From: a virus
Taxonomy: Duplodnaviria; Caudoviricetes
Virus record (IMG/VR): IMGVR_UViG_3300049144_000095
Coordinates: 32,001 to 96,000 of that record
DNA: 64,000 nt
Strand: one strand, 5' to 3'
The notes beneath the pieces were generated by a model. It was not told the DNA's origin. It made no database searches and saw only the letters and a list, made by a program, of their open reading frames with translations. A program made the translations under genes and the position numbers. Below are positions 31,973 through 63,179 of this stretch, one piece after another. How positions within the stretch are numbered: the first letter of the stretch is position 1; every line of letters begins with the position of its first letter.

Positions 31973-31984
31973 TGGCCTAGGTCA
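31973..31984. promoter_or_regulatory. Palindromic box TGGCCTAGGTCA
   Basis: Member of the YGRCCTAGGYCR family, between divergent ORFs. Confidence 0.6.
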
Positions 31985-32031
31985 TGTGCTTCTCTGTAGA
32001 GGGGAAACCCCTTCGGAAAGGAGCAAAAAGG

Positions 32032-32442
32032 ATGATCACTACTGCTGCGGTTGCCAAGGTCGTCGCCGGAACGATGCTGGCGGGCGGGGCCGTTGCCGGT
32101 GTCGGAGCCGTCGAACACTGCCCCGTCGGCGAGGTGTTCGCCAACGGCGGGTGCGGCAAGGTCGTGCAGACCCTCCCCGACGAGAAGCGGCAGGGAACCG
32201 GCACCATCTCCGCCGTGACCGTCGATGTCGACTTCCGCAACGGAGACGGCGAGCGCACCAACTCCGGGATCAGCACCGAGGACCAGTTCGAGTGGCTGGG
32301 CGGCAAGAAGCCGGGCCGCGACGGCGACGGCGAACTGATCGAGGTCCGCCAGATCACCCAGGGCAAGGGTGGATGGGGCCCGCTCTACCAGGGCTGGATC
32401 CCGGTCAAGTACACCCAGATCCCGCAGATGTTCAACGGCTGA
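32032..32442 (+). CDS. Putative secreted protein with an SH3-like C-terminal domain
   Basis: Signal-peptide-like N-terminus (AKVVAGTMLAGGAVAG); C-terminal WLGGK...YQGWIPVKYT; AAAGGAG RBS. Confidence 0.6.
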   Translation: MITTAAVAKVVAGTMLAGGAVAGVGAVEHCPVGEVFANGGCGKVVQTLPDEKRQGTGTISAVTVDVDFRNGDGERTNSGISTEDQFEWLGGKKPGRDGDGELIEVRQITQGKGGWGPLYQGWIPVKYTQIPQMFNG

Positions 32443-32448
32443 CCGGTC

Positions 32449-32865
32449 ATGAAGAAGGTCAGGACGTACGGGGAAGACTTCGCCCCCGTACCCTTCGGGA
32501 TCACGTGCATCCCGGAAGACCAGCTTCAGCTCCCCTCGGGGGCGGCCCGGCCGATCTACGTGGCCTGTACGCATGACGGTTTCCTCGGCTGTGCGGAACA
32601 TGTTTTCCAGACGGCCCAGGAGATCGGACTTCGGTACAACACTCTCGGCTGGGTGTTCCGTGTGACGGGCACCGGCCCGGACGAGGGTTCCTGGTGGGAG
32701 TGGGCCATGCTCGACGGCACGCTGTCGCGGGCACTGGATGGCGGGCTTCACTCGCCGACCTTCGAGGACGCCTGCCTCGGTCTGCTTCGTGCTTATCAGA
32801 TGCCGGAACCGTTCGGCATCAAGGTCGACGACGATCAGGGCCGTCACCTCGTCAGCCTCTCCTGA
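32449..32865 (+). CDS. Hypothetical protein
   Basis: 138-aa ORF 6 nt after the previous gene. Confidence 0.6.
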   Translation: MKKVRTYGEDFAPVPFGITCIPEDQLQLPSGAARPIYVACTHDGFLGCAEHVFQTAQEIGLRYNTLGWVFRVTGTGPDEGSWWEWAMLDGTLSRALDGGLHSPTFEDACLGLLRAYQMPEPFGIKVDDDQGRHLVSLS

Positions 32866-32973
32866 TCCGAGGTGCCGTCGCCCAGAGCGGGCACGACGGA
32901 GGCTTGACGGTCTGCCACCAGCGGGCGTGCGCACGGCCACAAGCGCACGGCCAAACCGCGAACAGTACGGACA

Positions 32974-33273
32974 TCAGGCCCCGCTCTCACCGAGCGGGGC
33001 CTCCTCCGTTTCATGCTCAGGCCAGTGCCAGGTGCCGCCCGCCTTCCCCTCGGAGTACTCGCAGCCGCCGTCCATGAACGAGTGGAAGAACATGCCCGTG
33101 GGGTTCAGGGCTACCAGGCCGACCCAGTTCTCTTCGGTCGAGTCCTTCGGGTTCTCGATCACTTCGGTGACGATGGCAGCCCTGCACTTGGGGGCGTACG
33201 CCTGCGTGCCGTCTTCGCGGACGGGCGTGCCGTGGGAAACGTAGTGGACGATGCGGCCGACCGTGGGCTTCAT
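32974..33273 (-). CDS. Conserved phage hypothetical protein
   Basis: MKPTVGRIVHY...AAIVTEV...GTWHWPE pattern; an 11-bp hairpin (32976-33002) overlaps its 3' end. Confidence 0.75.
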   Translation of the reverse strand: MKPTVGRIVHYVSHGTPVREDGTQAYAPKCRAAIVTEVIENPKDSTEENWVGLVALNPTGMFFHSFMDGGCEYSEGKAGGTWHWPEHETEEAPLGESGA

Positions 33274-33830
33274 CAGATCTCCTGAACGAGAATGTCGCGG
33301 GTGTCCCAGGGGGTGTCTCGTTTGAGCAGCTTGAAGTTGGCGCCCTCTTCACGCAGGTAGGGGATGAGGACTCTCCCCTTGCGCACTTCGGCGTGGTCGG
33401 TGTTCATGTCGTCGCCCATGATCAAGCCGGGACTTGTGACCAGATCCTCGGCCAGCAGGTACTCGCGCATGGTGGCCGAACCGGAGTTGTCAGCATCGAG
33501 GTAGACAACGTCGAATCTCTCCCCATGGACCACGAGATCCTGCATGGTCCTGACGGAGTCGCCTGCATGGAAAGTGCAGAAGCCCCCCAGGCCTTCAGCG
33601 TCGACAGCGGCACGGGCTTCGCTGGGATCGAGATCGATGCCGACATACTCACTGCCAGGGTGACGGCTCAGGAGCCGGGCGAAGGCCAGGGTGGAGTGCC
33701 CGTCGCCGTCAAGGTGCTCCTGATCCAGGTTGCGAAGGACGCCGACCTCCAGAACGCGCAGCGTTTTCTTGCCCGAGCGGGCCATGAAAGCTGGCAGCTC
33801 TTCATAGATGATGTCACCGATCGTTGTCAC
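33273..33830 (-). CDS. Class I SAM-dependent methyltransferase (Methyltransf_24-like)
   Basis: VLEVG motif I, YVGIDLDP, AGDSV, FDVVYLDAD, LIMGDD. Confidence 0.85.
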   Translation of the reverse strand: MTTIGDIIYEELPAFMARSGKKTLRVLEVGVLRNLDQEHLDGDGHSTLAFARLLSRHPGSEYVGIDLDPSEARAAVDAEGLGGFCTFHAGDSVRTMQDLVVHGERFDVVYLDADNSGSATMREYLLAEDLVTSPGLIMGDDMNTDHAEVRKGRVLIPYLREEGANFKLLKRDTPWDTRDILVQEI

Positions 33831-33872
33831 CCAAAGAGGGTAACCTGGCGTCCTGAAATGAGAGAAGTTGCC

Positions 33873-34046
33873 ATGGGAAAAAGCGGAAAGTCAGCAACCG
33901 GCACCGAAGTTGCAGAAAGCCCGCTCTGCGAATGCCCGCGATGGCTGGTGCGTGCAGGGGTCAGCGACGAGTTCATCCGCAAGGTGGAGAGGCGAGCCGG
34001 GGCGCGCTGGCTGTGTACGCGCTGCCAGCGCCCCTTACTGCCGTGA
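33873..34046 (+). CDS. Small Cys-containing hypothetical protein
   Basis: MGKSGKS...CECP...CTRC; purine-rich upstream sequence. Confidence 0.45.
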   Translation: MGKSGKSATGTEVAESPLCECPRWLVRAGVSDEFIRKVERRAGARWLCTRCQRPLLP

Positions 34047-34163
34047 CGTCAGAACATCCCGGACCAGCGTCGCGCCAGGCGGTCGCGCCGGACTCTGAGC
34101 AGCCGCCCGAGGAGCAGGCCGCTCGCCAGTCCGACGCCGTAGGCCAGCCAGCAGGGCATCCCA

Positions 34164-34550
34164 TTACTCCTTTTTGGGGGCCAGTTTCGCGATGTACTGG
34201 TGGGAGTAGCCAAGGATCCCCCCGGCATCTCGCACCGTGGTCTGTGCGGTGAGCTTCCTCACCGCAGTCACCAAGGCCTTCTCGGCTTCTTCCACGGCCA
34301 GCCGCGCGCTGTCCCGGGTCCTCTCGGCTTCAGCGACGACGGCTGCAAGCTCCGGGTCGGCGAACTCCATGCGGACGAGGAACGAGGTGGCGGGCACGTC
34401 CAGCAGATTGGCTACCAGGTCGACAGCCATCTCGTGCGCCTCCCCCCAGGTGCGGCCCTGCGTGACGGCAGACCCCTTCACGGGCAGCCCTTGCACGCGA
34501 GTCACCCAGAACTTGCCTTCGCGCTCAACCGTAGCGGTGTAGATGTCCAT
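34164..34550 (-). CDS. HicB-like antitoxin with a C-terminal HTH
   Basis: YTATVEREGKFWVTRVQGLP...VTQGRTWGEAHEMAVDL is HicB-like; TVRDAGGILGYSHQYIAKL HTH. Confidence 0.75.
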   Translation of the reverse strand: MDIYTATVEREGKFWVTRVQGLPVKGSAVTQGRTWGEAHEMAVDLVANLLDVPATSFLVRMEFADPELAAVVAEAERTRDSARLAVEEAEKALVTAVRKLTAQTTVRDAGGILGYSHQYIAKLAPKKE

Positions 34551-34556
34551 GCAAAT

Positions 34557-34574
34557 TGTCTACCATGCTAGACT
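34557..34574. promoter_or_regulatory. Overlapping divergent -10 elements in a near-palindrome
   Basis: GTCTACCATGCTAGAC; minus-strand TAGACA 6 nt before the HicB ATG, plus-strand TAGACT at 34569. Confidence 0.55.
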
Positions 34575-34613
34575 CAGCTTGTCTGCTCTGGTTGACGAGG
34601 TGAGGATCAAGGA

Positions 34614-34847
34614 ATGGGAATGCGCTGGACCGACTGGACGGGTCGACTCAAAGTGGAAGTGTTGCAGGAGGGTGGGCGCTGGACCGGCAAGCGAGCCATG
34701 GAGTACCTGCACTCCATCGGCTTTCACTGCACCATCGAACGTGCGCGCGTCTGCATGAAGAGGATCGCCGACCAGGAGCCCGAGCGGGTAGTCGTTGCCG
34801 AGGGGCATCGCTGGATCTGGGACGTGCGTGGCAGCGAGGAAGCGTGA
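34614..34847 (+). CDS. Small hypothetical protein, possibly winged-helix
   Basis: AGGA RBS; 77 aa; divergent from the HicB-like gene. Confidence 0.55.
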   Translation: MGMRWTDWTGRLKVEVLQEGGRWTGKRAMEYLHSIGFHCTIERARVCMKRIADQEPERVVVAEGHRWIWDVRGSEEA

Positions 34848-34851
34848 GTCC

Positions 34852-35439
34852 TTAGTCTGTCTCCTCCAGGTCGTCGTCCACCACGGGTTGCAGCTCTATC
34901 GGTCCGGCATTGCCTCCCACCTTCACCACTGCTGCCTTGTTGCGAGCAATGGCGTCAGCGGCCATGGCCGGGAAGGTGGTGTTCCACATGATCTCGACCG
35001 CCTCCCGGGACTCCTCGGGAAGGATCTCGACGATCTTTTCCAGCATCCCCACACGAAGGACATCGATCGCCGTGGTGACGAGTTGGGTCTGAGCCTGCGT
35101 CAGGCGCACCTGCTCATCGCGCAGCCGGTCCTTCTTGAGATCCATCAGCTCGGTGATCTCGCGGATCGTGTCGATCATGTTCTTCACGTTCCGGCCCTGC
35201 GTCAGCAGGTCTCCGTCCATCACCTGCTGCCAGAGGGCGCCGATCACACGCTCCAGGCGGGCAAGCTGCAACATCCGCATCTGCACGACGGACATCGAGG
35301 TTGCCTGGCTCTCCAGGTATGACGACATGCGCTCGTGCACAACTTCGACATCCAGACCCACGGTGGCCGCGATCTGGGCAAGGGTCTTTCCCTGGGCCGC
35401 CTGGTCGACCATCACCTGGGCGAGCGAATCGTGGGCCAC
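34852..35439 (-). CDS. Terminase small subunit-like HTH protein
   Basis: GKTLAQIAATVGL HTH and LARLERVIGALWQQVMDGD...IREITELMDL pattern seen in actinophage TerS-like proteins. Confidence 0.6.
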   Translation of the reverse strand: MAHDSLAQVMVDQAAQGKTLAQIAATVGLDVEVVHERMSSYLESQATSMSVVQMRMLQLARLERVIGALWQQVMDGDLLTQGRNVKNMIDTIREITELMDLKKDRLRDEQVRLTQAQTQLVTTAIDVLRVGMLEKIVEILPEESREAVEIMWNTTFPAMAADAIARNKAAVVKVGGNAGPIELQPVVDDDLEETD

Positions 35440-35592
35440 CTACTGCTCCTCGCGAGTGTTCACCTTCCGCACGAGGCGGATGCCGTTCTGATACATCGGG
35501 TGCCGAGTGGATTCCAGCAGACGGTCGAGCCAGGCCACCGCCAGTTCGTTGTCCAGGTCCACGTGGATCGTGACCTCTTGGGTGTTCGCCAT
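35440..35592 (-). CDS. Small hypothetical protein
   Basis: 50 aa abutting the TerS-like start. Confidence 0.5.
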   Translation of the reverse strand: MANTQEVTIHVDLDNELAVAWLDRLLESTRHPMYQNGIRLVRKVNTREEQ

Positions 35593-35701
35593 GCAGTCCT
35601 GTCGCTTTCGTTGCAGCGTGGGGGCGACGCCCCAACGCAAGAGGTGGTTTCGTTGCAGCGTGGAGAGATCGCTGCAACGAAGCTCATTGCCGACCGTGCC
35701 G

Positions 35702-36598: not shown

Positions 36599-36692
36599 GC
36601 TGCGAAGTCTACGGCGCAAGAAGGTAAGCAAAGCGCCTGCAACCTGTATATCTTTCTGAAGCCCGTTCCTGTCTTCGTGAAAGCAGAATTGC

Positions 36693-36938
36693 ATGACCTT
36701 CACCCGGACTCACGTCCATGTTTCCTTTGCTGACCCGTACTTGCGCTGCAACCGGTGCGGAAGGCGGGTGGAGGGGTGGCACGATCCGGACCGCTGCGGG
36801 TGCGAGGGTGAGGCGGTCAACGAGCCGTGCGGCTGCCGTTTCGACGCTCGGAGCGTGTGCCCTTCCTGGTCGCCCGTGGACGGCTGCACCTGCCCTCCTG
36901 ATGCGCACGAGGTCCCCTCGGGTTCCAGGAAAGACTGA
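36693..36938 (+). CDS. Cys-rich hypothetical protein
   Basis: CNRC...CGC...CGC...CPSW...CTC. Confidence 0.55.
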   Translation: MTFTRTHVHVSFADPYLRCNRCGRRVEGWHDPDRCGCEGEAVNEPCGCRFDARSVCPSWSPVDGCTCPPDAHEVPSGSRKD

Positions 36939-36969
36939 GACCCCCGGCGGCGGATCCGGGGGTCTCAGT
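36934..36969. terminator. 14-bp perfect inverted repeat between convergent genes
   Basis: ACTGAGACCCCCGG-CGGCGGAT-CCGGGGGTCTCAGT. Confidence 0.7.
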
Positions 36970-37068: not shown

Positions 37069-38175
37069 CTACACAGTGAACTGTTCGACAAGGTCTGCGT
37101 AGACGTCAACAGCCGACTCGGCATGCTTGGCTCGCCTGGCCTCCATGTTCCTCATCTGGACGTACCTAAGTGTTGTCTCGATGCGGGCGTGATCGGCGTA
37201 GTCCTGGATCTCCTCCAGATCAACCCCCTCGTCGTGCATGTGAGTGAGTCGCGCTTTCCGGAGTACGTGCGGAGTCACGTCGCGGCCAGGCAGCACACCC
37301 GCTTCTTTGCCGAGCCTGGTGAGCAGCCGGTCGATTGCGTGCCGGTCCATCGGCTTGCTGTCGCCATCCACCAGGAGGTGACCCTCGGTACGTCCGTCGA
37401 GGGCTACCAGGAAGAGGTCCCGCAGCCTGTCAGGGATGGGCCACAAGCGCCTCTTGCTGCGCTTGCGGGTCAGGGCCAGGTACCACTTGCCGTCTACGAT
37501 CCGACGCTGAGAGATGGTGGCGGTGCAGCACTCGGAAACCCGTCCCGCCACTGTGTAGATCAAGGCCGGAACGACCGCCTCGCGGGCAGTCTTGGCGGCC
37601 TTGATGACGCGCCGGTACTCGTGCACCTCCAGCAGCGGGGTGGCCGTTGTCTCGTCGAACGGATCAACCTTCGGCCGGTCGTACTTGGTAACCGGGGATA
37701 CGAGCCTGTCGTCCTTCAGCTTCCAGGCGGCGTACCGCGTGAAGGAAGTTAGTGCGGACAGGCGACGGTTTATCGTCCGAGGGGATGCGTTCTTCGCCTT
37801 CTGTGCCTTGGTCCATGTCTCGATCATTTCCATGGAGATGCAGCCCAGGAAAAAGCGTTCGTGACCGCCGAGTTCCCGGGCAACCCCAGCCCACAGTCTG
37901 ATGTCGTCGGCGTAGTGCCGTTTTGACTCCAGGGCGGGCACTGCATCGGAGCCGAGCCAGGACATGACGAGCAGGAAGGTCTCGCGCTCACACAGCTCGG
38001 CCAGCCACTCGATCCGGTGCTTGCGTGGACCGAGCCTCCGTGTCTTCGGATCGCGCGGAGCGACTGTGCCAAGCACTTGGAACAGCCACTCTGCGGCATC
38101 CTCGGCGAGACCATTCCCTGCAACCAGCTCTGCATGGTGGACAGTTGCCAGGTCGCCGACTTTTGCTGTTGGCAC
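37069..38175 (-). CDS. Tyrosine recombinase (XerC/D-like or integrase)
   Basis: Catalytic R (AGRVSE), K (TRKRSK), HxxR (PHVLRK), H (ADHA) and Y (TTLRY) all present. Confidence 0.92.
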   Translation of the reverse strand: MPTAKVGDLATVHHAELVAGNGLAEDAAEWLFQVLGTVAPRDPKTRRLGPRKHRIEWLAELCERETFLLVMSWLGSDAVPALESKRHYADDIRLWAGVARELGGHERFFLGCISMEMIETWTKAQKAKNASPRTINRRLSALTSFTRYAAWKLKDDRLVSPVTKYDRPKVDPFDETTATPLLEVHEYRRVIKAAKTAREAVVPALIYTVAGRVSECCTATISQRRIVDGKWYLALTRKRSKRRLWPIPDRLRDLFLVALDGRTEGHLLVDGDSKPMDRHAIDRLLTRLGKEAGVLPGRDVTPHVLRKARLTHMHDEGVDLEEIQDYADHARIETTLRYVQMRNMEARRAKHAESAVDVYADLVEQFTV

Positions 38176-38603: not shown

Positions 38604-38918
38604 GTGACGCTTCCACGTATGACCCAGGCAACCGTCTCGATCCTGGAAGCACTCCTCCAGGCCGAGCGTGACCATCCGGCAGAATCCCTCTGGGGCCTGA
38701 GGGTCTGCCAGGTAACCGAGCTGATGCCCGGCACGGTCTATCCGGTGCTCATCCGACTGACCCGGCTCGGCTGGGTAGAGGTGAGCGAGGAGACCGGAGT
38801 GCACCCCGGTCGCCCGCCACGCAAGTACTACCGGTTCACGGACGAGGGCCGCATTCTCGCCGAAGCCTCACTAGAGCACCGAAGGGTGCAGAGGGCGCGA
38901 ATCGCAGGCAGGGGCTAA
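38604..38918 (+). CDS. PadR-like transcriptional regulator
   Basis: WGLRVCQVTELMPGTVYPVLIRLTRLGWVE...RPPRKYYRFTDEG. Confidence 0.88.
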   Translation: MTLPRMTQATVSILEALLQAERDHPAESLWGLRVCQVTELMPGTVYPVLIRLTRLGWVEVSEETGVHPGRPPRKYYRFTDEGRILAEASLEHRRVQRARIAGRG

Positions 38919-39128: not shown

Positions 39129-39422
39129 ATGGATACCTCCCCACATGTCGACCCGAATGCCGATCACCCGGCTTGCGGCATCTGTCCTTCGCGGCGCTTT
39201 CCCCGCTCAGGGTTCGCAGTATTCGACCGGCCCACGCGTGCCGCTCCGTTCAACCCCGACGACGGTTACCGGTATACCGCCGACGGGGTTCCGGCTTGCG
39301 TGCATCCGGACAGAATCGGACTTGAGCCGGACCGGACGGCGCCCCCGCCGGAGCCGGTCGAACCTGAACCTACGCCTGCGCCTCGGCGAAGCCGATGGCG
39401 CTGGTCATCCCGCGCTCGGTGA
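39129..39422 (+). CDS. Hypothetical protein
   Basis: CGICP...PFNPDDGYRYTADGVPACVHP; convergent with and overlapping the next ORF. Confidence 0.55.
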   Translation: MDTSPHVDPNADHPACGICPSRRFPRSGFAVFDRPTRAAPFNPDDGYRYTADGVPACVHPDRIGLEPDRTAPPPEPVEPEPTPAPRRSRWRWSSRAR

Positions 39423-39960
39423 TGCCGATCCCCGCGTACAGCCCGTCGAGGATCACGCGGCGGCGCTCGGCCTCGTCCGCGTCGATCCAGTACCGGCTGT
39501 CGATGGGGCCGAAGGCCGTCTCGTACGCCTGCTGAGTGTAGTCCCCGCTGCGGTACGGGGTGTTCAGCAGGTGCTCGTTCACCGTGCTGTGCACGAAGGG
39601 GTGGCCGGTGCGCTCCTGGATCCTGGACAGGGCCGTGAACTGTGCGCAGAGCGCGTGGCTGGTGACGTCGAGCGGCACCGGCACGGGCAGCTCGGCGGCG
39701 ACCTCGTCGCCCGTCAGCTCGTACACGGCGCTCTTGAGGGCCATGACCCGGATGGTCCCGTGGATGAGGTGCGCGGCGTCACGCTGGACGGAGTACTCGG
39801 GGATGAGCGGTCCGCCGTAGAAGTCGTCCCAGTCGGAGTTGTACTTGGTGCACCCGTCGAGGACGGCCCCCATCTCGGGGTCGGCCAGCCAGTCGTCGAG
39901 GATGGCGCGGGCTCGCTGGGCCGTTTCCTCGGGCGCTGGACGCGTGAGGGTAGCAGACAC
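39370..39960 (-). CDS. Hypothetical protein resembling Streptomyces genomic-island proteins
   Basis: GAAAGG RBS before the GTG at 39960; ALKSAVYELTGDE...HALCAQFT...RYWID. Confidence 0.7.
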   Translation of the reverse strand: MSATLTRPAPEETAQRARAILDDWLADPEMGAVLDGCTKYNSDWDDFYGGPLIPEYSVQRDAAHLIHGTIRVMALKSAVYELTGDEVAAELPVPVPLDVTSHALCAQFTALSRIQERTGHPFVHSTVNEHLLNTPYRSGDYTQQAYETAFGPIDSRYWIDADEAERRRVILDGLYAGIGITERGMTSAIGFAEAQA

Positions 39961-39997: not shown

Positions 39998-40009
39998 GGG
40001 CCTAGGCCA
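39998..40009. promoter_or_regulatory. Palindromic box GGGCCTAGGCCA
   Basis: One mismatch to YGRCCTAGGYCR; intergenic, upstream of the ORF starting at 39960. Confidence 0.55.
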
Positions 40010-41983: not shown

Positions 41984-42303
41984 GACTCAAGCGTCAGATA
42001 CGGTCCGTCGCCCCTCCAAGGGGAAACGGTGAAAAATCTCGACGCTAGGCGCATCCGGCTGACGGGAACGACCGGAAGGTGATGCGTCCGAGGAGGCGTC
42101 AGGGTCGGCCCTTCACGCAGTGCGAATCACCCCAGAGCGTGGGGCCGTTGCGATGCAAGGTGTCCTCTCCGTGCTTCCTGAGTTCGCAGATGACCGGCGG
42201 TCCGGGGAGATCGAGTCGTGCCAGGCAGTCCCGGTCCACATCGCGGAGATAGGAAGATCGTTCTGGCATGTCTCGATCATACGTATGTGGCAGCCTTGTC
42301 CGC

Positions 42304-42498
42304 ATGGCTCGCATGCTGGGAACTTTCGAACGCTCATGGTGCCCGAAGTGCAAAGGGCCAGCGGGGCCGGACTGCCCGGACGTGTCCATGCGGAAGAGGT
42401 CACGCAAGGCCCAGGAGAGGCGTGAGTGGTGCGCCGAGGCTCGTACGTACCTCCAGCGTTCACAGGCCGCCAATGACGTGGAGGCGTCCGCCTCGTAG
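42304..42498 (+). CDS. Small hypothetical protein
   Basis: MARMLG...CPKC...CPD...RKAQERREW. Confidence 0.5.
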   Translation: MARMLGTFERSWCPKCKGPAGPDCPDVSMRKRSRKAQERREWCAEARTYLQRSQAANDVEASAS

Positions 42499-42623
42499 GC
42501 GTTGAAACCGGTACACCCGGCATCCCCCTCCGGTCCATCCAGCCGTTCCCGCACCAGTGTGCAATATGAGCAACATGATGACTGGGTAGGGTTCTTCACG
42601 TTCGGGCAGCCACACCCTATGAT

Positions 42624-42635
42624 CGGCCTAGGCCG
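42624..42635. promoter_or_regulatory. Palindromic box CGGCCTAGGCCG
   Basis: Perfect palindrome immediately after a plus-strand TATGAT (42618-42623). Confidence 0.6.
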
Positions 42636-43194: not shown

Positions 43195-43695
43195 ATGCTG
43201 ACACTCGCAGCCAAGCTGAAGCATCTGGTCCGGCGCCTGTCCCCCGACCAGCCGTTCTCTGAGCGCCATCTGTCTGCGGCCGTCAGGGAGCTGCCTGGGC
43301 ACACGCGTGGAGGGTCCCGTACGGCCATCAACAAGCTGCTCCGGGGCATTGACGACAATCCCACGGTCGTGACCCTCATGGCGCTTGCTCAAGTCCTCGG
43401 GGCCCCAGCGCCCTTCCTCCTCCCTGGCTGGGACGACCTCACGGCTCTTTCGGTTCTCCAGAGGCGGCCCCAGGCGGTCGAGATCCTGCGACACCTGGAC
43501 GGGGTCCCCGAGGCAGACCTCCGCGATCTACTCGAAGACATAAAAAAGCGACGAATGGAACTCGGGTTGCCGCAGACCGTGGACCCGGTCCACATTGATC
43601 CGCACGATCAGAACGAGACCGACCCGCACGACCCCAGAAGGCGCAGCCCCAAGGACTCCGCCAGGTATGCGGCAGACTCCCTGGAAGGGACCTGA
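43195..43695 (+). CDS. XRE-family HTH regulator, EspR-like
   Basis: TLAAKLKHL...SRTAINKLLRGIDDNPTVVTLMALAQVLGAP. Confidence 0.8.
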   Translation: MLTLAAKLKHLVRRLSPDQPFSERHLSAAVRELPGHTRGGSRTAINKLLRGIDDNPTVVTLMALAQVLGAPAPFLLPGWDDLTALSVLQRRPQAVEILRHLDGVPEADLRDLLEDIKKRRMELGLPQTVDPVHIDPHDQNETDPHDPRRRSPKDSARYAADSLEGT

Positions 43696-47070: not shown

Positions 47071-47730
47071 TCACAGCACCTCGATGTTGGAGGTGTCGGG
47101 CTGGTGAGGGTCGACCACGAGCTGCCAGCCCGGGGTCTCCTTACCCATGTAGTGCCTCTCGTGGCCGTCCCGGACGCCTCGGGCGAGCAGCCTGCGTTCG
47201 ACCTCCTTGACGGAGCCCCGGCTCTTGCGCCCGCTCCCCTCGGACACCCAGCCGTTGCGCACCTCGTAGACGTCCCACCGCAGATCGCGTGTCGACTGAG
47301 ATCGCAGGTTCCAGACCTCTACGACTCCGGGCCCGAACTCGGCGCGCAGCGCCTTCTTCAGGCGCTCTTCCGCCTCTGCGGGATCGATGCCGGTGAAGAA
47401 CAGGGAGCTGGAGATACGAGAGCCGCTGGAGCGGATGACCGGCATCTCCTCACCGAGCGGGTCTTCTTCGTAGACCTCGGTGACCTTGACGTGAAACTCT
47501 CCGCCGAAGACGGACCGGACCTTGACCTGCGGGTCCTTCTCGCGGTGCAGGTGATCCCCGTCGCCCATTGCGCGATACGCAGGGATGAGCAGTTGCGACC
47601 TGAAGTCGAAATCCTGCACGTAGACCAGATCGGTCGGTCCGAGGTTGCGAACCTCGTCCGGCTCCATGAGGCGCATCTTGATCAGCGTCTTGCCGACCTC
47701 GGTGCGCGTGTTCTCTCCGCCGAAGATCAT
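47071..47730 (-). CDS. Hypothetical protein
   Basis: 219 aa; AGGAGG RBS. Confidence 0.7.
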   Translation of the reverse strand: MIFGGENTRTEVGKTLIKMRLMEPDEVRNLGPTDLVYVQDFDFRSQLLIPAYRAMGDGDHLHREKDPQVKVRSVFGGEFHVKVTEVYEEDPLGEEMPVIRSSGSRISSSLFFTGIDPAEAEERLKKALRAEFGPGVVEVWNLRSQSTRDLRWDVYEVRNGWVSEGSGRKSRGSVKEVERRLLARGVRDGHERHYMGKETPGWQLVVDPHQPDTSNIEVL

Positions 47731-47808: not shown

Positions 47809-47829
47809 ACCCTAGCATGGCCTAGGTCA
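47809..47829 (-). promoter_or_regulatory. Palindromic box plus -10 element
   Basis: Minus strand TGACCTAGGCCA-tgc-TAGGGT. Confidence 0.65.
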
Positions 47830-51109: not shown

Positions 51110-51482
51110 GTCGCGCCTCGGCATCGTTGGCCCGCGCGATCTCGGCCTCGGCCAACTGGTCAAGTTCCGAATCCGCGAGGAGGACGAAAGCCGCCCTGGG
51201 TACCCAGCCGACCGTCGCTTCGACTCCCACCTGACGAACGTTGTCGCGACTTCCTCGCGCCTGATAGGCGCTCTCGAAGTACTTTGATTCCGCTTCCGGG
51301 AACCGGCCGTTCGGTATGGTCTTCACCCGGTAGAGTCGGTCGCCACCCTCGGTGCTGGCAGTGCGATCCGGGGCGGATGCGAGGAGGGCGTTCAGAAGAG
51401 AACAGGCGTCCTCGGCGTCCATCCCGGACCGGATGAGGTGGGTGAGGGTGAGTGATCGGTAGCGTGCGTGGCCGATGCTCAC
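51102..51482 (-). CDS. Hypothetical protein
   Basis: GGGAGG RBS; coupled. Confidence 0.6.
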   Translation of the reverse strand: MSIGHARYRSLTLTHLIRSGMDAEDACSLLNALLASAPDRTASTEGGDRLYRVKTIPNGRFPEAESKYFESAYQARGSRDNVRQVGVEATVGWVPRAAFVLLADSELDQLAEAEIARANDAEARHG

Positions 51483-51751
51483 GAGCCTCCCCCCTTCCGC
51501 TCGGCTGCGTACAGCTCGACGGTCTCCTTGGTGGCCGCGTAGCGTGCGGCGGCTACGATGAACTGCTGAATGTCCTGGGCGAGGGAGTTCACCCTGCCGG
51601 TGGCAATGCCGGAGTCGACGTCCCCCGCGAGGCGGGCGGCGGCTTCTGCGATGTCCTGGGCGTCACGAGTGAGGCTGGCCCTGGCGTTCTCCAGTCGAGA
51701 TGTGAGGGCGCGCTCGACCGTGTACGGAGATGCCTTGTCGTTGTTGTTCAA
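51479..51751 (-). CDS. Hypothetical helical protein
   Basis: GGAGAAGGA RBS; first gene after the promoter at about 51780. Confidence 0.65.
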   Translation of the reverse strand: MNNNDKASPYTVERALTSRLENARASLTRDAQDIAEAAARLAGDVDSGIATGRVNSLAQDIQQFIVAAARYAATKETVELYAAERKGGGS

Positions 51752-51776: not shown

Positions 51777-51801
51777 AGTCTACCGGAAATGACCTAGGCC
51801 G
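51777..51801 (-). promoter_or_regulatory. Palindromic box plus -10 element
   Basis: Minus strand CGGCCTAGGTCA-tttccgg-TAGACT. Confidence 0.65.
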
Positions 51802-51837
51802 TGGAGGCCGAGTCTCATTGTGGCTACGCTGTTCCCC

Positions 51838-52239
51838 ATGTCTGAGAAATGGGGGGCGGGCGACCAGCCTTGGCTGCGACGCCATCAGCCCGAAGCAACG
51901 TACAACCCGGTTCCAGCATCGGAGCTGTTGCAGTGCCTGTTCTGTGGAGCCAGGACTCTGAAGCGCTCGGCCTCCGACCGCCCCGAGGATTCCAATCGCC
52001 TGGAACTGTACTGCGACAACAGCCGGTGCGATGCCCGCGAGATGGTCTTGCTGGTACTGAGGGACAAGCAGCCCGGACTCAGGGCTGACGTGAAGGCTCT
52101 CCGGCTCGTGGACGACGGCACGCTGGACGTGCACAAGGCCTTCCCGCCCGAGGTGAAGTCGGACGACCTGTTCGACCTCCTGGAAGACCGGCCGAACATC
52201 GTCGGCCGCCGGATGCGCAAGACGTCCACGGACGGCTGA
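51838..52239 (+). CDS. Zinc-ribbon hypothetical protein
   Basis: CLFCG...YCDNSRCDARE; TACGCT 7 nt before the ATG. Confidence 0.65.
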   Translation: MSEKWGAGDQPWLRRHQPEATYNPVPASELLQCLFCGARTLKRSASDRPEDSNRLELYCDNSRCDAREMVLLVLRDKQPGLRADVKALRLVDDGTLDVHKAFPPEVKSDDLFDLLEDRPNIVGRRMRKTSTDG

Positions 52240-54705: not shown

Positions 54706-55668
54706 GTGAAAGATCGTCGCGAGGTGGAGCAGGGTGTTCTCGACGAATCCCTGATGGACGAGATCGTGCAGCTCTATGAGGCTGGTGTGCCTATTGCGCA
54801 CATCGTCGCTCAACTGCGTGAACGAGGGCTGGCTGCCAACTGGCACTGGGTCGATGCCGCCCTGGACCGATGCCAGATCATCCGGCACTCCAAGGCTGGG
54901 GTGATTCCCAGGGGGGCGACGGAAGGATTCTCCGTCGGCACACTCAAGCGGATCTGGGGCGAGGTGATCTCGACTGGACGAGGGGATGGCGCCCGTGTGG
55001 TGCGCCGAGGTGACCTTGTTCATCGCCGTCGAATGCGCGCCACTTTTCAGACATACGGCACTTTCGGAGGAAGAGGTCTCCCCGTCGGCGACGACGGACA
55101 TTCCAGGTTGAATAAGTATCTACTGACCGTTCTTGCAGAGCGGCATGCAGAAGGGAAGGGTGAAACTCTGCGCAGTCTGGCCGCGCGCATCAGAATGGAT
55201 GAATCTTCCCTGGCCCACTCCCTTCGAGACGCCGGGTATGTTGTCCAAACCAATGCCGAATGGACAGAACGAGAGCTACAGCGGCTGACCGGCGAGATCG
55301 TCAGCATGTATCGCGATGAAGAGAAGCCCTTGCCGATGATTCTCGATCAGCTTCGGCGGCAGTATGAAGTGTTCATTTCAGAACGCAGGCTGAGGAGTCT
55401 TCTTGAGGGTCAGGATGTCCCCATCCGGACCGAGCACCCTCGCTCGCGACCCGCAAGCATGCCACCTTCCGACTCCCGCTGGCGGAAGATACACGGACGC
55501 GAAGAAGAGCTGGCGCAGTCCATTCTCGACAGGAAACAGACGACGCGAGCAATTGCCGACGAGCTTGGCGTCGATCACATCTGGCTCGCCCAGGCGCTGC
55601 GTCGCACCGGTCATCTGCCTGACATGCCGTTGCACCACTACTGGGCCTGGAAGAAGTCTCAGGGCTGA
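54706..55668 (+). CDS. Multi-HTH DNA-binding protein
   Basis: Several HTH-like repeats (EIVQLYEAGVPIAHIV; GETLRSLAARIRMD; EIVSMYRDEEKPL; TTRAIADELGVD). Confidence 0.65.
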   Translation: MKDRREVEQGVLDESLMDEIVQLYEAGVPIAHIVAQLRERGLAANWHWVDAALDRCQIIRHSKAGVIPRGATEGFSVGTLKRIWGEVISTGRGDGARVVRRGDLVHRRRMRATFQTYGTFGGRGLPVGDDGHSRLNKYLLTVLAERHAEGKGETLRSLAARIRMDESSLAHSLRDAGYVVQTNAEWTERELQRLTGEIVSMYRDEEKPLPMILDQLRRQYEVFISERRLRSLLEGQDVPIRTEHPRSRPASMPPSDSRWRKIHGREEELAQSILDRKQTTRAIADELGVDHIWLAQALRRTGHLPDMPLHHYWAWKKSQG

Positions 55669-57504: not shown

Positions 57505-57539
57505 GCCGCGACCCTGCGGCGCAGAGGGGTCAACGGGCT

Positions 57540-58723: not shown

Positions 58724-58749
58724 GGATCTCCTCAGCTCGGAGCTACAGG

Positions 58750-59064
58750 TCAGGACTTGCCCAGCAGGCCGAGGAGCAGGCCGGACACCCTGAAGTAAGT
58801 GTCGTAGGCCGGAGTGTCGGGTCGGACGTCTGCGAGCGCACGCATTTCGATCAGGTGCGCGATGGCGTCCACCGTCTTCCGGTCGAGCAGTTCACTTTGC
58901 GCGGCCCGGATCAGTTCCAGGCCCAGAGCTGTGGCGTCCTCTCGCGTGAAGAGGGCGTCGCTGCCCGGAGTCACGATGTCCTTCCAGGCGAGGGAGGTCT
59001 GATCTCCGTCCTGCTCGACGGTGAACTTCCGGCCGCCGACTGATGTGATCTTCTTCTGGTCCAT
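58750..59064 (-). CDS. Hypothetical protein
   Basis: GAAGGGA RBS; downstream of the promoter at 59093. Confidence 0.65.
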   Translation of the reverse strand: MDQKKITSVGGRKFTVEQDGDQTSLAWKDIVTPGSDALFTREDATALGLELIRAAQSELLDRKTVDAIAHLIEMRALADVRPDTPAYDTYFRVSGLLLGLLGKS

Positions 59065-59092
59065 GCTGCATCCCTTCTCTTTCCGGACTTCC

Positions 59093-59114
59093 ATCCTATC
59101 GGTGACCTAGGCCG
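59093..59114 (-). promoter_or_regulatory. Palindromic box plus -10 element
   Basis: Minus strand CGGCCTAGGTCA-ccga-TAGGAT. Confidence 0.65.
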
Positions 59115-59574
59115 TTGAGGGACCCTTACCGCGAGATTGGACAGGCGTAGAGATGGCACGCTCTGGAGTCCAGCCCCGCCCTAGTCTCCCCATGAGGGTC
59201 GAGACGTAGACCAGCGGGCACCGTTCGTCCAGCAGCCACTCGCTGTACGTCTTCGTCTCGCCCCAGGCGGTGAGCCGGTGGGGCGCTCGCTTGGTCCGGT
59301 AAGCGGCGAAGTCGGGGTCGTTCTCCAGCATCCAGGCGTGCCACTCGTGTACCTGGCCGATCATCCAGACGTCTCGCCGCGCGATCTGTATCACCGGAGG
59401 CGGGAACAGGCCTTGCGGCGGGACGCTGGGCCGGGACATCCGGCTGTCGTAGCGGACTTGCCATTCCTCGACAAGACGTCCTGAGATGCCGAACTCGCGG
59501 CCCACGTCCCAGGCATCCCCCAGCCGGGGAAGGTCGGGCTGCCGTGAGAGCCAGTACTCGATGGGGTTCTCCAT
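59107..59574 (-). CDS. Putative DNA-binding protein with a C-terminal domain of the kind found on HNH homing endonucleases
   Basis: RLTAWGETKTYSEW...TLMGRLGRGWTPERAISTP; no HNH catalytic motif. Confidence 0.6.
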   Translation of the reverse strand: MENPIEYWLSRQPDLPRLGDAWDVGREFGISGRLVEEWQVRYDSRMSRPSVPPQGLFPPPVIQIARRDVWMIGQVHEWHAWMLENDPDFAAYRTKRAPHRLTAWGETKTYSEWLLDERCPLVYVSTLMGRLGRGWTPERAISTPVQSRGKGPSTA

Positions 59575-59657
59575 CCTGTAAAAATATCGCAGAACGAAGT
59601 GAAAGAATCCTTTAGTTCGGCGCTGAGGTGGGACGCGAAACTACAAGAGCTGGACCC

Positions 59658-60032
59658 TCACTCCCGCCGGGAGTCGCAAGGGCAGACCAGGTTGCTGCCG
59701 GGGACACCACGGGACACCGTGAACCAGCAGCGGCCGTCTACGTCATGCACCCCCGTCTCGTGATCACACGACGGACACCGCCTGCTGGCAGCCCGGTCGG
59801 TGCCGTTCTGCACGTCGCTCGCGCTCTCCTCGTCGGCCCAGTAGTCGGGCCGTACCGGCTCCCAGTCGCCGTAGGTGATGCGGCGGCGGATCTGAACACC
59901 CCGGGAGTGCTGACCAGGAACGAGGTCGCCTCCACCGTCAGGTCGGGGGAACCAGGTGTGGAAGTCCCACTCCGGCGGAGGAATGCACGGCAGCAGGCTC
60001 TTGCGTATCGGCTCGGACTCGGGCCAGTTCAC
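59658..60032 (-). CDS. Hypothetical protein
   Basis: GTGA coupling; IRRRITYGDWEPV and CPSCDH...C...CPC. Confidence 0.55.
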   Translation of the reverse strand: MNWPESEPIRKSLLPCIPPPEWDFHTWFPRPDGGGDLVPGQHSRGVQIRRRITYGDWEPVRPDYWADEESASDVQNGTDRAASRRCPSCDHETGVHDVDGRCWFTVSRGVPGSNLVCPCDSRRE

Positions 60033-60706
60033 TGTGGAGTTCCCTCCCCGGCACCTGACGGACCGGTGTTGTCGGAGTTCCAGGCGTCGACCACTTTGCC
60101 AGCGACCTTGATGTCCCGTCCCGCTGTATCGATACCGACATATCCGAGAATCCCTCGGATCCCGGAGGGCGGCACGTAGTCGACGCACTCGCACACCGAG
60201 CAGGCCTCACGGGTCCAGCCCGGTCGTTGGCGCCGGTGCTCGGCCTCGGTGTGCCTGCACTCGTACCGCTCCTGATGGTTGCCGTCTGCCTGTCTGCGCA
60301 GCTCCGCCTCGATCAGGCGGGCTCCATGGAGTACCCCTTCGCGATCACCCGAAGAGCGGGCAACCCTGCGCAGAAAACGAGCCGCCTCGCGCCAACCTTC
60401 CGCCGGGGTTCCGAAAGGTTCCATGCCGCAGGCGTCACAGCACCCGCACTGATCCACGCAGACGAGTTCGTCGCCTTCCTCGTCACCCTCGGCCGATACC
60501 CTCATGCTCGCTTCGAAGGCGACCAGATGTGTCCGCGCCGCAGCCAGGCGTGCGCAGTGACCGCAGGGTCTTCCCGACTCGTCCCAGACGCCGGGCCGCT
60601 GGTGTGCATGAGCAGGGCCGCTGTAGTCGAGCGCGTAGCGCAGATCATCCGCCAGGAGGGCGGCGAACGCGGCTTCGGCCTCAGTTCGTTTGGCTGTCTC
60701 GCTCAC
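60029..60706 (-). CDS. Modular hypothetical protein
   Basis: GTGA coupling; several Cys clusters. Confidence 0.55.
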   Translation of the reverse strand: MSETAKRTEAEAAFAALLADDLRYALDYSGPAHAHQRPGVWDESGRPCGHCARLAAARTHLVAFEASMRVSAEGDEEGDELVCVDQCGCCDACGMEPFGTPAEGWREAARFLRRVARSSGDREGVLHGARLIEAELRRQADGNHQERYECRHTEAEHRRQRPGWTREACSVCECVDYVPPSGIRGILGYVGIDTAGRDIKVAGKVVDAWNSDNTGPSGAGEGTPQ

Positions 60707-61038
60707 GACATCTCCCCGGCTTCTCGCATGGCCTGCAACAGGCGTGCCCCCCGTGCGATGTCGATGGGCCAGGTCCAACGCCTGGCCCCTGACCCACACG
60801 CCGGGTCCGGACACACCCATCCGTCCGTGGTGGCCATCAGTAAGGGGCCACCCGTAAGGACTCGCCCGCTTTTGTGACTGGGCCACCAGCAGCGCATCTT
60901 GGGTCGGCTGGGGTTCTCGGGGCCATGCTCCTGAAGGCAGTTCAGTGCGTCCACCTGTTCACTCGTCCACGGTGCCTCGACAGTCCAGGGCCACTCCCCC
61001 AGGGGTGTCGTCAGTGGGTCGAAGGGAGTCTGGCTCAT
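60703..61038 (-). CDS. Hypothetical protein, paralogous to 58133..58723
   Basis: APWTSEQVDALNCLQ...ATTDGWVCPDPAC; GGAG RBS. Confidence 0.65.
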   Translation of the reverse strand: MSQTPFDPLTTPLGEWPWTVEAPWTSEQVDALNCLQEHGPENPSRPKMRCWWPSHKSGRVLTGGPLLMATTDGWVCPDPACGSGARRWTWPIDIARGARLLQAMREAGEMS

Positions 61039-61090
61039 GGGGCAGCTCCAGGAGGCGAAGGGCGACACAGGTGTTGTCGCGGGGATCTCC

Positions 61091-61112
61091 AGTCTACCCC
61101 TGGCCTAGGCCG
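61091..61112 (-). promoter_or_regulatory. Palindromic box plus -10 element
   Basis: Minus strand CGGCCTAGGCCA-gggg-TAGACT. Confidence 0.65.
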
Positions 61113-61136
61113 GATGGTCAGGTCTAATCTGGCTTC

Positions 61137-61358
61137 ATGGATTCCACACTTCAGCCGCTCCCCTGGTCCCGAGAACTTCCCCTCAACAGGCAGGAGGAGT
61201 TCGCGGCCGAACTCCGGCGCACACCCGAGCGCCTGCTGCCCCATCTGATCGCCGCCTGGAAGACGACGGCCGAGTTCTACGCGAACCCGGGGCCGCTGCT
61301 CCGCCTGGTGGCAGCCCCCGGCGAGGGCTTCGCGTACCTCAGGCCGCCTACATCCTGA
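61137..61358 (+). CDS. Small protein resembling the C-terminus of Streptomyces Phd-like antitoxins
   Basis: LPWSRELP...EEFAAEL...IAAWKTTAEFYANP. Confidence 0.5.
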   Translation: MDSTLQPLPWSRELPLNRQEEFAAELRRTPERLLPHLIAAWKTTAEFYANPGPLLRLVAAPGEGFAYLRPPTS

Positions 61359-61599
61359 CGGGCCCTCACCGCACGGGCAGCTTCCCGGCAGGGAGCAGAC
61401 AGAGCCGGGGTCTCGGGGCGAACACGAGACGGCCGGAGCATGGGGCGACTCCGGCCGTCTTGCTGGGAAGAGTTCACGGCTCTTCCCACAGGGCCCTCCA
61501 AGGGCACCGGCGCACGCGGTGAGGACCGTGCGCCAGTGAGGAGAGTAGGTGCCTCCGGCTGGCGAGCGCCAACCCTCGGACAGTCCCGGACGGAGTTGG

Positions 61600-61833
61600 T
61601 CAGGGACGGCACTTCAGGCCGTAGGCCACGATGAAACGCAACACGAGCAGGCCCCCGACGAAGTGCAGGTAGAAGGCCGCTCCTGAGGGGATGCTGAGCA
61701 GGTCCGCCATGATGTCGGGACACGTGAACAGAGGAAGACCCACAGCTCCTGCCGCCTTGGCTTCCAGACGCATGGGGGTCCCGGACTTCTTGTCCTCTGA
61801 CTGAGGGGCGTTCTTCGGGGTGCTGTCGTCCAT
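61600..61833 (-). CDS. Small membrane protein
   Basis: AAGGAGAAG RBS; C-terminal hydrophobic helices. Confidence 0.6.
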   Translation of the reverse strand: MDDSTPKNAPQSEDKKSGTPMRLEAKAAGAVGLPLFTCPDIMADLLSIPSGAAFYLHFVGGLLVLRFIVAYGLKCRP

Positions 61834-62166
61834 GACTTCTTCTCCTTTTCCGATTGGGTCAACTCTAGCTCTGGCAGAACTGGTTGAGCCTCAACGGATG
61901 CTCAGAGTCCCGAAGCGGTCACGGGCCGGACAAAGCTGAGCTGGCACAGGGGTCTTCCGCTGCCTCCCCCGAGGGCGGTGCCACCTCTCACGCGGAGCGA
62001 GTCACGCGCGCCGGGTCTCACACCCGGATGCCAGTGAGTTGATGATACGACAAGCCTCAGCGGGGGCGGCAGGGGCCTCGACCTCGCCAGCTCTCCAGGG
62101 GTTGTAGGTCTGGGCTTGTAGGTTTGTGGTTCTGTGGATCTGGATTGTGGATGAAAGAGCGCCGGG

Positions 62167-62556
62167 GTGAGCGAGCGCAGACAAGACGAGGCGACACAGC
62201 CTGCATCGGTGTTCCGTAGCCGTGGCTACGAGCACGTCTCCTACTACCGGGTGTACTGCACGGCCGACTGCGGCTACTACCTCTCAAGAGAGGAGGGCTC
62301 GTGGTCCAGGACGACACACAGGCGGTACGCCGCCTGCTTCCCCGACGCAGACAAGGCGTGGCAGGCCGCACGGTCCGCCGGGTGGGCGAACGTACTGCTC
62401 CCAGGGCATGACCCGCACAAGCACGGTCCCTACGGCCCGAAGCAGCGCATGTTCTACTGCGACCAGAGCGGCGCCGGGGACTGCCAGGAGGTCCGCGAGT
62501 ACAAGGACGCCACCGTGTGCCCCGAGTGCAGAGGCGCCGGATGGTTCCCCTGGTAG
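62167..62556 (+). CDS. Zinc-binding hypothetical protein
   Basis: CTADC...CDQ...C...CPECRGAG. Confidence 0.55.
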   Translation: MSERRQDEATQPASVFRSRGYEHVSYYRVYCTADCGYYLSREEGSWSRTTHRRYAACFPDADKAWQAARSAGWANVLLPGHDPHKHGPYGPKQRMFYCDQSGAGDCQEVREYKDATVCPECRGAGWFPW

Positions 62557-62577
62557 CCGGGACCGGACACGGAGGAG

Positions 62578-62742
62578 ATGGTTCGAGTGAGCAGGCACTT
62601 CATGCTGGCCGTTCAGGTGGCCCTGCCTGGCCATGACGACGAAGAGGAGGAGGCGACTCTGTCGCTCCTTCAGGAGCGCATCAGAGGTCTGCCCGAGTTC
62701 AAGCAGCTCGGCGCAACGATGGACCCGCCCGAGCAGATCTGA
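62578..62742 (+). CDS. Small hypothetical protein (54 aa)
   Basis: GGAGGAG RBS; ends just before the terminator. Confidence 0.5.
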   Translation: MVRVSRHFMLAVQVALPGHDDEEEEATLSLLQERIRGLPEFKQLGATMDPPEQI

Positions 62743-62752
62743 CCCGAGTCAG

Positions 62753-62793
62753 AAAAGAGCCCCCTTGTGATCAACTCACGAGGGGGCTCTTTT
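62753..62793. terminator. Bidirectional intrinsic terminator
   Basis: AAAAGAGCCCCCT...AGGGGGCTCTTTT between convergent genes. Confidence 0.85.
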
Positions 62794-62963
62794 GCGCACG
62801 AGGCGCATCGGTGCCTGAAGGCTATCAGAGCCTTGCCCCGTCAGGAGGCAAAGGGGCCCACGTAGAGAAGGCGCAGCGGATTTTTCTGCCGACTCGATTT
62901 CCGGATCCTGACTCGCTTCATGGTTTTTCGGCAGGGACCGGACAGAGGCCTCTATCCCGCCAA

Positions 62964-63161
62964 TTAGTCGGGGTCCATCGGAGGCGGCGAATCGATTGAC
63001 CCTTCTTCGCTCCGCTTCCAGACCGGATGCGGCCTCTTGTGGATCTCGGTCATCTCCATCATGCGTGTGACCATGTAGCGCAGCACGGCTGCATCGAGGT
63101 CGACCGGGTAAGGGGTCGAGTTGTCGAGGAGGTGGATCATGTCGTCTTCACTGATGCTCAT
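62964..63161 (-). CDS. Small hypothetical protein
   Basis: 65 aa; first ORF left of the non-coding region. Confidence 0.5.
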   Translation of the reverse strand: MSISEDDMIHLLDNSTPYPVDLDAAVLRYMVTRMMEMTEIHKRPHPVWKRSEEGSIDSPPPMDPD

Positions 63162-63179
63162 GCGGTGAGCCTAGGGCAA

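Follow-up and report, generated by a model that had tools for sequence, protein, structure and literature searches.

Transcriptional regulators of the HutC subfamily of the GntR family commonly autoregulate and are mostly repressors (PMC4494728, PMC8584621), and their operators share the consensus N-GTMTAKAC-N, in which GT and AC lie 4 nt apart (PMC4494728). The GG pair of each half-site is read by two arginines in NagR (Arg38, Arg48) and DasR (PMC4918961), and TraR-type members repress the transfer genes of plasmids (PMC4447253). Here we analyse a 12-bp palindrome, TGGCCTAGGCCA, which recurs in IMG/VR virus record IMGVR_UViG_3300049144_000095, a Streptomyces-type phage sequence of 251,159 bp with 65% GC; the window referred to below is the stretch of 64,000 nt that comprises bases 32001-96000 of this record. 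The sites form one family, with a defined placement and conservation, that is linked to the gene of a regulator of the GntR/HutC type, here named GntR-A. Judged from the sequence data as a whole it is fairly likely that the palindrome (from now on referred to as the box) is the operator of a phage-encoded GntR/HutC repressor, GntR-A, and that the gene of the repressor itself is among the targets.

A scan of the complete record revealed 36 copies of CCTAGG, 30 of them extended to GRCCTAGGYC (operator form T-G-R-C-C-T-A-G-G-Y-C-A), compared with one copy of the reversed control pattern. Genes were called with a self-trained codon-usage model (434 genes, 14.4% intergenic DNA) and, after two doubtful start codons had been corrected by homology to the phage Satis, all 30 boxes were intergenic with none inside a coding sequence. 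The tetranucleotide CTAG is about 8-fold under-represented in the genome (106 copies against roughly 800 expected from base composition), the boxes making up almost a third of all genomic CTAGs. Because of this depletion, and since an in-frame CCTAGG needs rare or stop codons, the enrichment was tested in intergenic DNA only; these 36.4 kb hold 29-30 boxes, while 0.16 would be expected given the 70 intergenic CTAGs and 0.17 from an order-3 Markov model (at most 2 in 300 simulations). A preliminary description of the window had placed the palindrome at gene boundaries and named equally frequent matches within coding regions as the outcome that would speak against a regulatory site. The scan against a CTAG-depleted background thus bears out this placement, with strong intergenic enrichment and no coding-region match in the genome.

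Within the window YGRCCTAGGYCR is matched exactly at 31973, 42624, 47818, 51790, 59103 and 61101, six copies against 0.07 expected from dinucleotide shuffles (none of 100 shuffles reached six). The plain hexamer CCTAGG is found eight times, all within 31976-63175 and none in 1-31975, which is the chance level (8.8 expected), and its count was therefore rejected as evidence, the non-random part being the extended consensus and the placement. These results agree with the preliminary description, where these six copies, one at 39998 and a weak one at 63167 had been listed and the structural 31 kb had been reported as free of the motif. In the genome the box-free stretch extends over 6.8-63.9 kb and holds the replication and virion genes.

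In protein searches close relatives were found only among the cluster BM Streptomyces phages, namely Satis, JustBecause, Kradal, Quantum, EhyElimayoE, Kela and Frankenweenie, the major capsid protein being ~90% identical, while nucleotide searches of the phage collection with the window DNA gave no match. These relatives are siphoviruses with a prolate head and a large genome of 184-200 kb (PMC6687918). Homologues in Satis were found for 190 of the 434 proteins, in conserved order and typically ~50% identical. Satis, JustBecause, Kela and Frankenweenie contain exactly 15 boxes each, compared with 3-9 copies of the control pattern, and none of the 15 in Satis overlaps a curated gene, the distance to the following start codon being mostly 16-47 nt. 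Every one of them has an orthologous box before the orthologous gene in the phage studied here, as for the box at 31973, whose counterpart upstream of Satis gp19 is unchanged while the flanks have diverged. When the 15 pairs were compared, the nine invariant positions (TGG, CCTAGG and the C after Y) were identical in 14-15 pairs and the degenerate Y and the outer R in 11, compared with 4-8 in most of the flanks. As these positions are kept while the proteins are only ~50% identical, the box is under strong purifying selection, and it is almost certainly a selected promoter-associated element.

In order to analyse the promoter geometry the boxes were oriented by the gene they precede, giving 51 oriented sequences; orthologous pairs among these are non-independent, so the probabilities are overstated, and halved counts lead to the same conclusion. 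The actinobacterial -10 is TANNNT and the vegetative -10 of Streptomyces is TAGRRT. TANNNT peaks at offset -8 from the box (10 of 51 sequences against 0.16 expected; 15 at -8 to -10 against 0.5 expected), where the hexamer ends on the T with which the palindrome begins and the box spans about -7 to +5. A second cluster at +10 to +21 (19 against 1.9 expected) puts the box in the -35/-10 spacer, and at a few sites the -10 lies another 6-10 nt upstream, so that the box is just past the start site. The position of the -10 relative to the box thus ranges from -18 to +24, varying among sites and kept between orthologues, and TAGRRT accounts for many of the hexamers. Two orthologous promoters have a good -35, TTGACA, with the box occupying the spacer behind it; no shared -35 was seen when the box promoters were aligned at their -10. 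No match to Sigma70_r2 was detected among the phage proteins and the matches to r4 were all sub-threshold. A phage-specific promoter would have a fixed position relative to the start site and depend on a sigma factor or polymerase gene of the phage's own, which is not the pattern seen here. The perfect palindrome, with an offset that varies between promoters yet is kept between orthologues, argues for the operator of a dimeric repressor and not for a polymerase element or a class II activator site, and the box is very probably a transcription-factor operator. Two functions had been suggested in the preliminary description. An activator box replacing the -35 is unlikely, as a protein bound to the many boxes that cover -7 to +5 or lie downstream of the -10 would be in the way of the polymerase. 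A repressor operator silencing the early operons holds in so far as the box is a selected, operator-like cis-site on non-structural promoters, whereas the word early is plausible only.

Two GntR-family genes are present in the genome, GntR-A and GntR-B, both outside the window and convergent across the record junction on a shared hairpin, and both encoding a GntR domain together with a UTRA domain (HutC subfamily). GntR-A consists of an N-terminal GntR winged helix (Pfam E=1e-8) and a C-terminal, chorismate-lyase-like UTRA domain (E=1e-16), and its GTG start is preceded by a ribosome-binding site and, 25 nt upstream, by a box. An AlphaFold model (pLDDT 86) gave DasR, NagR and PhnF as the best matches in the PDB (Foldseek E about 1e-17 to 1e-13). 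When modelled as a homodimer, paired via the UTRA domain, the protein scored 0.76 compared with 0.13 for the best control, with a contact agreement of at least 71% between runs and a partner pLDDT of at least 76, and the interface was formed by residues 180-192, 207-211 and 234-244. Among proteins of solved structure, 21 of 30 pairs of one chain reach the mark for this score, compared with none of 23 single chains. Homodimerisation through the effector domain is thus supported by the model, though the pass may reflect likeness to solved HutC dimers.

The box accompanies the gene of GntR-A in related phages. An orthologue, 66% identical, is present in all seven cluster BM phages, and the stretch gcatgacacaatacGGCCTAGGCCacaag before the gene is conserved in the four that were checked (Satis, JustBecause, Kela and Frankenweenie). 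On syntenic, phage-like metagenomic contigs the orthologues with 51%, 48% and 45% identity have GGCCTAGGCC 34-60 nt before the start codon, and one with 46% identity has GCCTAGGC twice. In all, the arrangement recurs in nine records, namely the phage studied here, the four cluster BM phages and four contigs from metagenomes; in eight of these a box precedes the regulator gene by 23-60 nt, and in the ninth a variant is present. The two most distant of the lineages with the box, at 48% and 45%, have no other exact 10-bp box within 20 kb (one further partial copy is present on the 48% contig), which suggests that the autoregulatory site is the ancestral one. Homologues of at most 43% identity, of the plasmid or integrative-element type, as well as those of ZL12 and pMLP1, lack the box and have palindromes of the TGGTCTAC or GCTAGTACTAGC type instead, so the motif tracks the GntR-A clade. 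GntR-A is furthermore the only recognisable regulator among 32 scanned genes that follow boxes; scans of viral and genome contigs with GntR-A gave no useful relatives. On these grounds GntR-A is probably the protein that binds the box.

The box was also compared with the sites of described HutC regulators. Its half-site TGGCCT (in a minority TGACCT) contains the GG pair, and when GntR-A was aligned to DasR an arginine was found at both GG-reading positions. HutC-like length, symmetry and the central CTAG are kept, and a site is present at the regulator's own promoter. The recognition helix reads T-S-R-x-T-I/V/A-D-K/G in the clade with the box, compared with V-A-Q/G/N-x-T-A-S/N-R in the plasmid clade. 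GntR-A is accordingly classified as a HutC member, and the putative site as a HutC-like operator that fails one defining sequence feature.

That feature is the first of several points that weigh against GntR-A as the binder and against repression as its function, for in all 30 copies GC..GC replaces the GT..AC that is the hallmark of HutC sites. A simple residue-to-base rule for GC versus GT was considered and rejected, as DasR shares the Ser-Arg of the recognition helix yet reads T. Co-occurrence of gene and box does not discriminate, since the two are present together in all close relatives found; near about six boxes no -10 can be recognised, and spacer boxes without a clear -35 could in principle be sites of activation. 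There are also other candidates in the phage: several helix-turn-helix (HTH) genes are conserved between this phage and Satis, and one of them, an HTH_26 gene encoding a small protein beside a UvrD helicase, is syntenic in all contigs that bear GntR-A. A small conserved HTH protein, or another DNA-binding protein of the phage, might therefore bind the box and GntR-A merely be one of its targets. We regard this as unlikely, although it fares better than the other alternatives, as no box is found upstream of any of these HTH genes, the 12-bp palindrome with central CTAG and GG pair is of HutC architecture, and in the 45-48% lineages the box before the GntR gene is the only copy, or nearly so, as expected for autoregulation.

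Other binders had been put forward in the preliminary description, namely two PadR proteins, an XRE protein and a multi-HTH protein, and none of these was retained. One PadR protein only is detectable in the whole genome, there is no box before its gene and it has no homologue in Satis, a phage with the same box. The XRE protein likewise lacks a homologue in Satis, and for the possible multi-HTH protein only sub-threshold HTH matches were obtained and no Satis homologue is listed in the gene-by-gene comparison.

The binder could also be encoded by the host, e.g. a Streptomyces HutC-family regulator related to DasR, in which case a host signalling circuit would be exploited by the phage, whether or not GntR-A competes for the site. 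Streptomyces encodes many HutC paralogues, and two symmetric substitutions separate the box from the dre core of DasR, TGGTCTAGACCA. The positions substituted are, however, the GT/AC that is most conserved in HutC sites (PMC4494728), and across lineages the box follows the GntR-A clade of the phages and is gone with the more distant homologues, which makes a host factor improbable.

Slightly less probable still is a core promoter element for a phage-modified polymerase, or the site of an activator that replaces the -35, with no repressor involved. Most box promoters are without a clear -35 and ten sites have the identical arrangement of TANNNT fused to the box, as such an element would predict, whereas the perfect palindrome, the widely variable offset (boxes lie anywhere from about 16 nt downstream of the -10, in transcribed DNA, to 24 nt upstream of it), the lack of a detectable sigma factor in the phage and the two orthologous promoters with a box behind a good TTGACA speak for an operator. 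A role outside transcription, for example in restriction or methylation (AvrII recognises CCTAGG, and Satis encodes a DNA methyltransferase) or as a replication or packaging signal, is very hard to reconcile with conservation over 10-12 bp, with intergenic copies tied, about six boxes excepted, to a -10 hexamer 16-90 nt before a start codon, and with orthologous copies at the same promoters in both phages, the absence of CCTAGG from genes being explained by codon usage (CTAG ~8-fold depleted). The box was also considered as an RNA hairpin, which was rejected because only a 3-bp stem is possible.

With GntR-A as repressor, we infer the following concerning binding, sign of regulation, timing and effector. 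The box promoters, with their host-type -10 (TANNNT/TAGRRT), would be read by the RNA polymerase of the host, and a GntR-A dimer on the palindrome would occlude the -10, the start site or the -35/-10 spacer and so block initiation. About 30 operons (15 of them core) of small non-structural or accessory genes, some tRNA and Y RNA genes and GntR-A itself would then form one regulon that excludes the replication and virion modules. Early in infection these promoters would be active without restraint, to be shut down as GntR-A accumulates, with negative autoregulation of the repressor, and the UTRA domain might provide a small-molecule input.

The putative regulon includes arrays of small ORFans, a transglycosylase, TerD, a Ter-type ATP-grasp protein, a SLOG-family protein, the regulator itself and a variable accessory block, as well as the region in front of the Y RNA/Ro60 locus and some tRNA and Y RNA genes. 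A Pfam scan of 32 genes after boxes gave mostly no match, the matches being SLT, TerD, Ter-type ATP-grasp and YAcAr, and no functional theme emerged among them. Fifteen boxes of this phage are additional to the set shared with Satis, and seven of these fall within ~68.6-97.9 kb of the genome, a block mostly inside the window where only a handful of the called genes have a Satis homologue.

Cluster BM and related Streptomyces jumbo phages are almost wholly unannotated, about 8% of the Satis proteins having known relatives (PMC6687918). In the literature no description was found of the box motif or of gene regulation in cluster BM phages, and the full-text matches to the box sequence were unrelated. 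Multi-copy phage operators and HutC repressors on mobile elements of Streptomyces are already known; it is this motif and this network that are new. Together they provide a testable regulatory map with one 12-bp site, one candidate regulator and 15 core plus 15 lineage-specific promoters, which can be addressed in isolated phages (Satis on S. lividans). If the proposed regulation is correct, a ligand-responsive HutC regulator would join the short list of phage global regulators and link phage regulation to the kil-kor repressors of plasmids. It would also provide synthetic biology with a compact, orthogonal operator/repressor pair and graded Streptomyces promoters. We would go further only tentatively, to the doubtful idea that a repressor derived from the kil-kor systems of Streptomyces conjugative plasmids is the master switch of a lineage of apparently lytic jumbo phages and gates some 15-30 early and accessory promoters by a host metabolite via its intact UTRA pocket. 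If so, the transcription programme of the phage would read the physiological state of the mycelium, and new genes would be wired in by gaining a 12-bp box, seven of the 15 extra boxes lying in the 29-kb insertion covered by the window.

The copies of the palindrome in the window and the regulator genes are listed in Table 1. The minus-strand -10 hexamers given in the preliminary description were recovered at the same spacings, TAGGGT 3 nt after the box at 47818, TAGACT 7 nt after that at 51790, TAGGAT 4 nt after that at 59103 and TAGACT 4 nt after that at 61101, and a fifth, TAGGGT, was identified 4 nt after the box at 42624. The copy at 39998 contains the 10-bp core GRCCTAGGYC with G at position 1, where the consensus has Y, and no clear TANNNT was found in its vicinity. 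In the two divergent regions plus-strand genes also begin close to the box, 21 nt to the right of the 51790 box (gene 51820-52239) and 27 nt to the right of the 61101 box (gene 61137-61358), while the 59103 box precedes a minus-strand gene that ends at 58750. The look-alike at 63167 is probably not a site.

Table 1. Copies of the palindrome in the window and genes of candidate DNA-binding proteins (window coordinates unless marked as genome)
Feature	Position	Strand	Sequence or similarity	Context
Box	31973-31984		TGGCCTAGGTCA, exact match	Intergenic; 50 nt upstream of plus-strand gene 32032-32442
Box	39998-40009		GGGCCTAGGCCA, core GGCCTAGGCC	40 nt upstream of minus-strand gene 39370-39960
Box	42624-42635		CGGCCTAGGCCG	Minus-strand -10 TAGGGT at 42614-42619; plus-strand TATGAT 3 nt upstream
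Box	47818-47829		TGGCCTAGGTCA	Minus-strand -10 TAGGGT at 47809-47814; 90 nt upstream of minus-strand gene 47071-47730
Box	51790-51801		TGACCTAGGCCG	Divergent intergenic region; minus-strand -10 TAGACT at 51777-51782 for gene 51479-51751
Box	59103-59114		TGACCTAGGCCG	Minus-strand -10 TAGGAT at 59093-59098, then ribosome-binding site and ATG
Box	61101-61112		TGGCCTAGGCCG	Divergent region; minus-strand -10 TAGACT at 61091-61096 for gene 60703-61038
Weak look-alike	63167-63178		GAGCCTAGGGCA, 3 mismatches	5 nt from a start codon
GntR-A	genome 210-944	minus	GntR/HutC regulator	31 kb before window start
GntR-B	genome 250377-251111	plus		No Satis orthologue; no box upstream
PadR-family gene	38619-38918	plus	Pfam PadR E=3e-10	No box upstream
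XRE (HTH_3) gene	43195-43695	plus	Pfam HTH_3 E=7.5e-5	
Possible multi-HTH protein	54706-55668	plus	Sub-threshold Clr5 and HTH_23 matches only	

On the minus strand after the 42624 box no convincing open reading frame (ORF) was found, those at 42099-42599 having a third-position GC of 0.70 compared with 0.8-0.95 in real genes. The ~640 bp downstream of this box and its TAGGGT (41984-42624) contain no ORF with the third-position GC bias of the genome, and this stretch could be a non-coding RNA or a recently gained gene with foreign codon usage. Further on the gene caller placed no gene in ~2.8 kb, from window position 63162 through 64000 and on to genome position 97952, a stretch that contains both the weak 63167 copy and a perfect box at genome 96830.

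Sequences related to the box were also found. Variants with a changed central TA, GGCC[C/T][A/G]GGCC, occur at genome 1094, 71106 (window 39106), 199556, 203906 and 219513; five of seven copies are intergenic, one of them where the gene transcribed divergently from GntR-A has its promoter region, and they may be weaker secondary operators. Copies of CCTAGG outside boxes (GCGCCCTAGGGY), at genome 122998 and in Satis at 169532, 170543 and 180707, are located within GC-rich hairpin-like repeats, an element different from the box. One of the two promoters with TTGACA has its box at genome 246134, before a gene for a 384-aa protein (246213-247367) that gave no match in the Pfam scan while its orthologues on related contigs have a weak match to SpdB_N (plasmid spread protein), an arrangement that echoes the control of spdB by TraR on Streptomyces plasmids.

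The window furthermore contains, at 37069-38175 on the minus strand, a gene for a tyrosine recombinase/integrase (Pfam Phage_integrase E=1e-21, with a SAM-like N-terminal domain), close to the PadR gene and in a block poor in Satis homologues. Frankenweenie was reported to be without integrase or repressor (PMC10652959), and the 251-kb phage may, unlike the cluster BM phages so reported, be temperate or plasmid-like. The ends of the record (genome 1-157 and 251003-251159) share a repeat of about 110-150 bp in which at least one position is mismatched, and the record, termed linear, is on this account a closed assembly. The sequencing runs listed for the window were five from soil DNA and none from RNA.

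When the box is compared with other multi-copy phage operators, two systems can be considered. In the Streptomyces phage phiC31 conserved inverted repeats are present in multiple copies near early promoters and are bound by the c repressor; these repeats are 17 bp long, of a different sequence and bound by a repressor of a different family, and phiC31 is temperate. The stoperators of cluster A mycobacteriophages (L5 gp71) are dozens of copies of one short repressor site scattered between genes. They are asymmetric, orientation-dependent and bound by the lysogeny repressor, also inside operons, whereas here a palindrome is found on promoters, together with a protein of another family, and the relatives of the phage were reported to lack integrase and repressor (PMC10652959).

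Closer in protein family are DasR of S. coelicolor with its dre sites and NagR (YvoA) of B. subtilis (PDB 4ZS8, 4WWC), the best structural matches, which have the same winged helix plus UTRA architecture as GntR-A. Like the box, their operators are palindromes centred on CTAG that have a GG pair in each half-site and occur many times in a genome. The box reads GGCCTAGGCC, however, where dre reads GGTCTAGACC, the GT/AC hallmark being replaced, and GntR-A differs from DasR in being phage-encoded, only ~24-26% identical and predicted to control phage promoters.

The nearest relatives outside phages are the kil-kor repressors TraR, KorA and KorSA from conjugative plasmids and integrative elements of Streptomyces, also of the HutC type (PMC4447253, PMC8584621, PMC4494728), with 37-43% identity over the full length. 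Homologues of GntR-A at 37-42% identity were found on more than 150 Streptomyces plasmid records, and the examined ones of at most 43% identity adjoin SpdB- and TraB-type genes, the context of TraR, KorA and KorSA, while the homologue of pSM17C has only hypothetical neighbours. As proposed for GntR-A, the kil-kor repressors are autoregulated and restrain the genes of the mobile element that carries them. Their sites differ from the box, with TTTGGTACACAACT in pSVH1 and TGGTCTAC and GCTAGTACTAGC upstream of the homologues identified here, and they act on a handful of promoters, compared with the 15-30 boxes of the phages described here.

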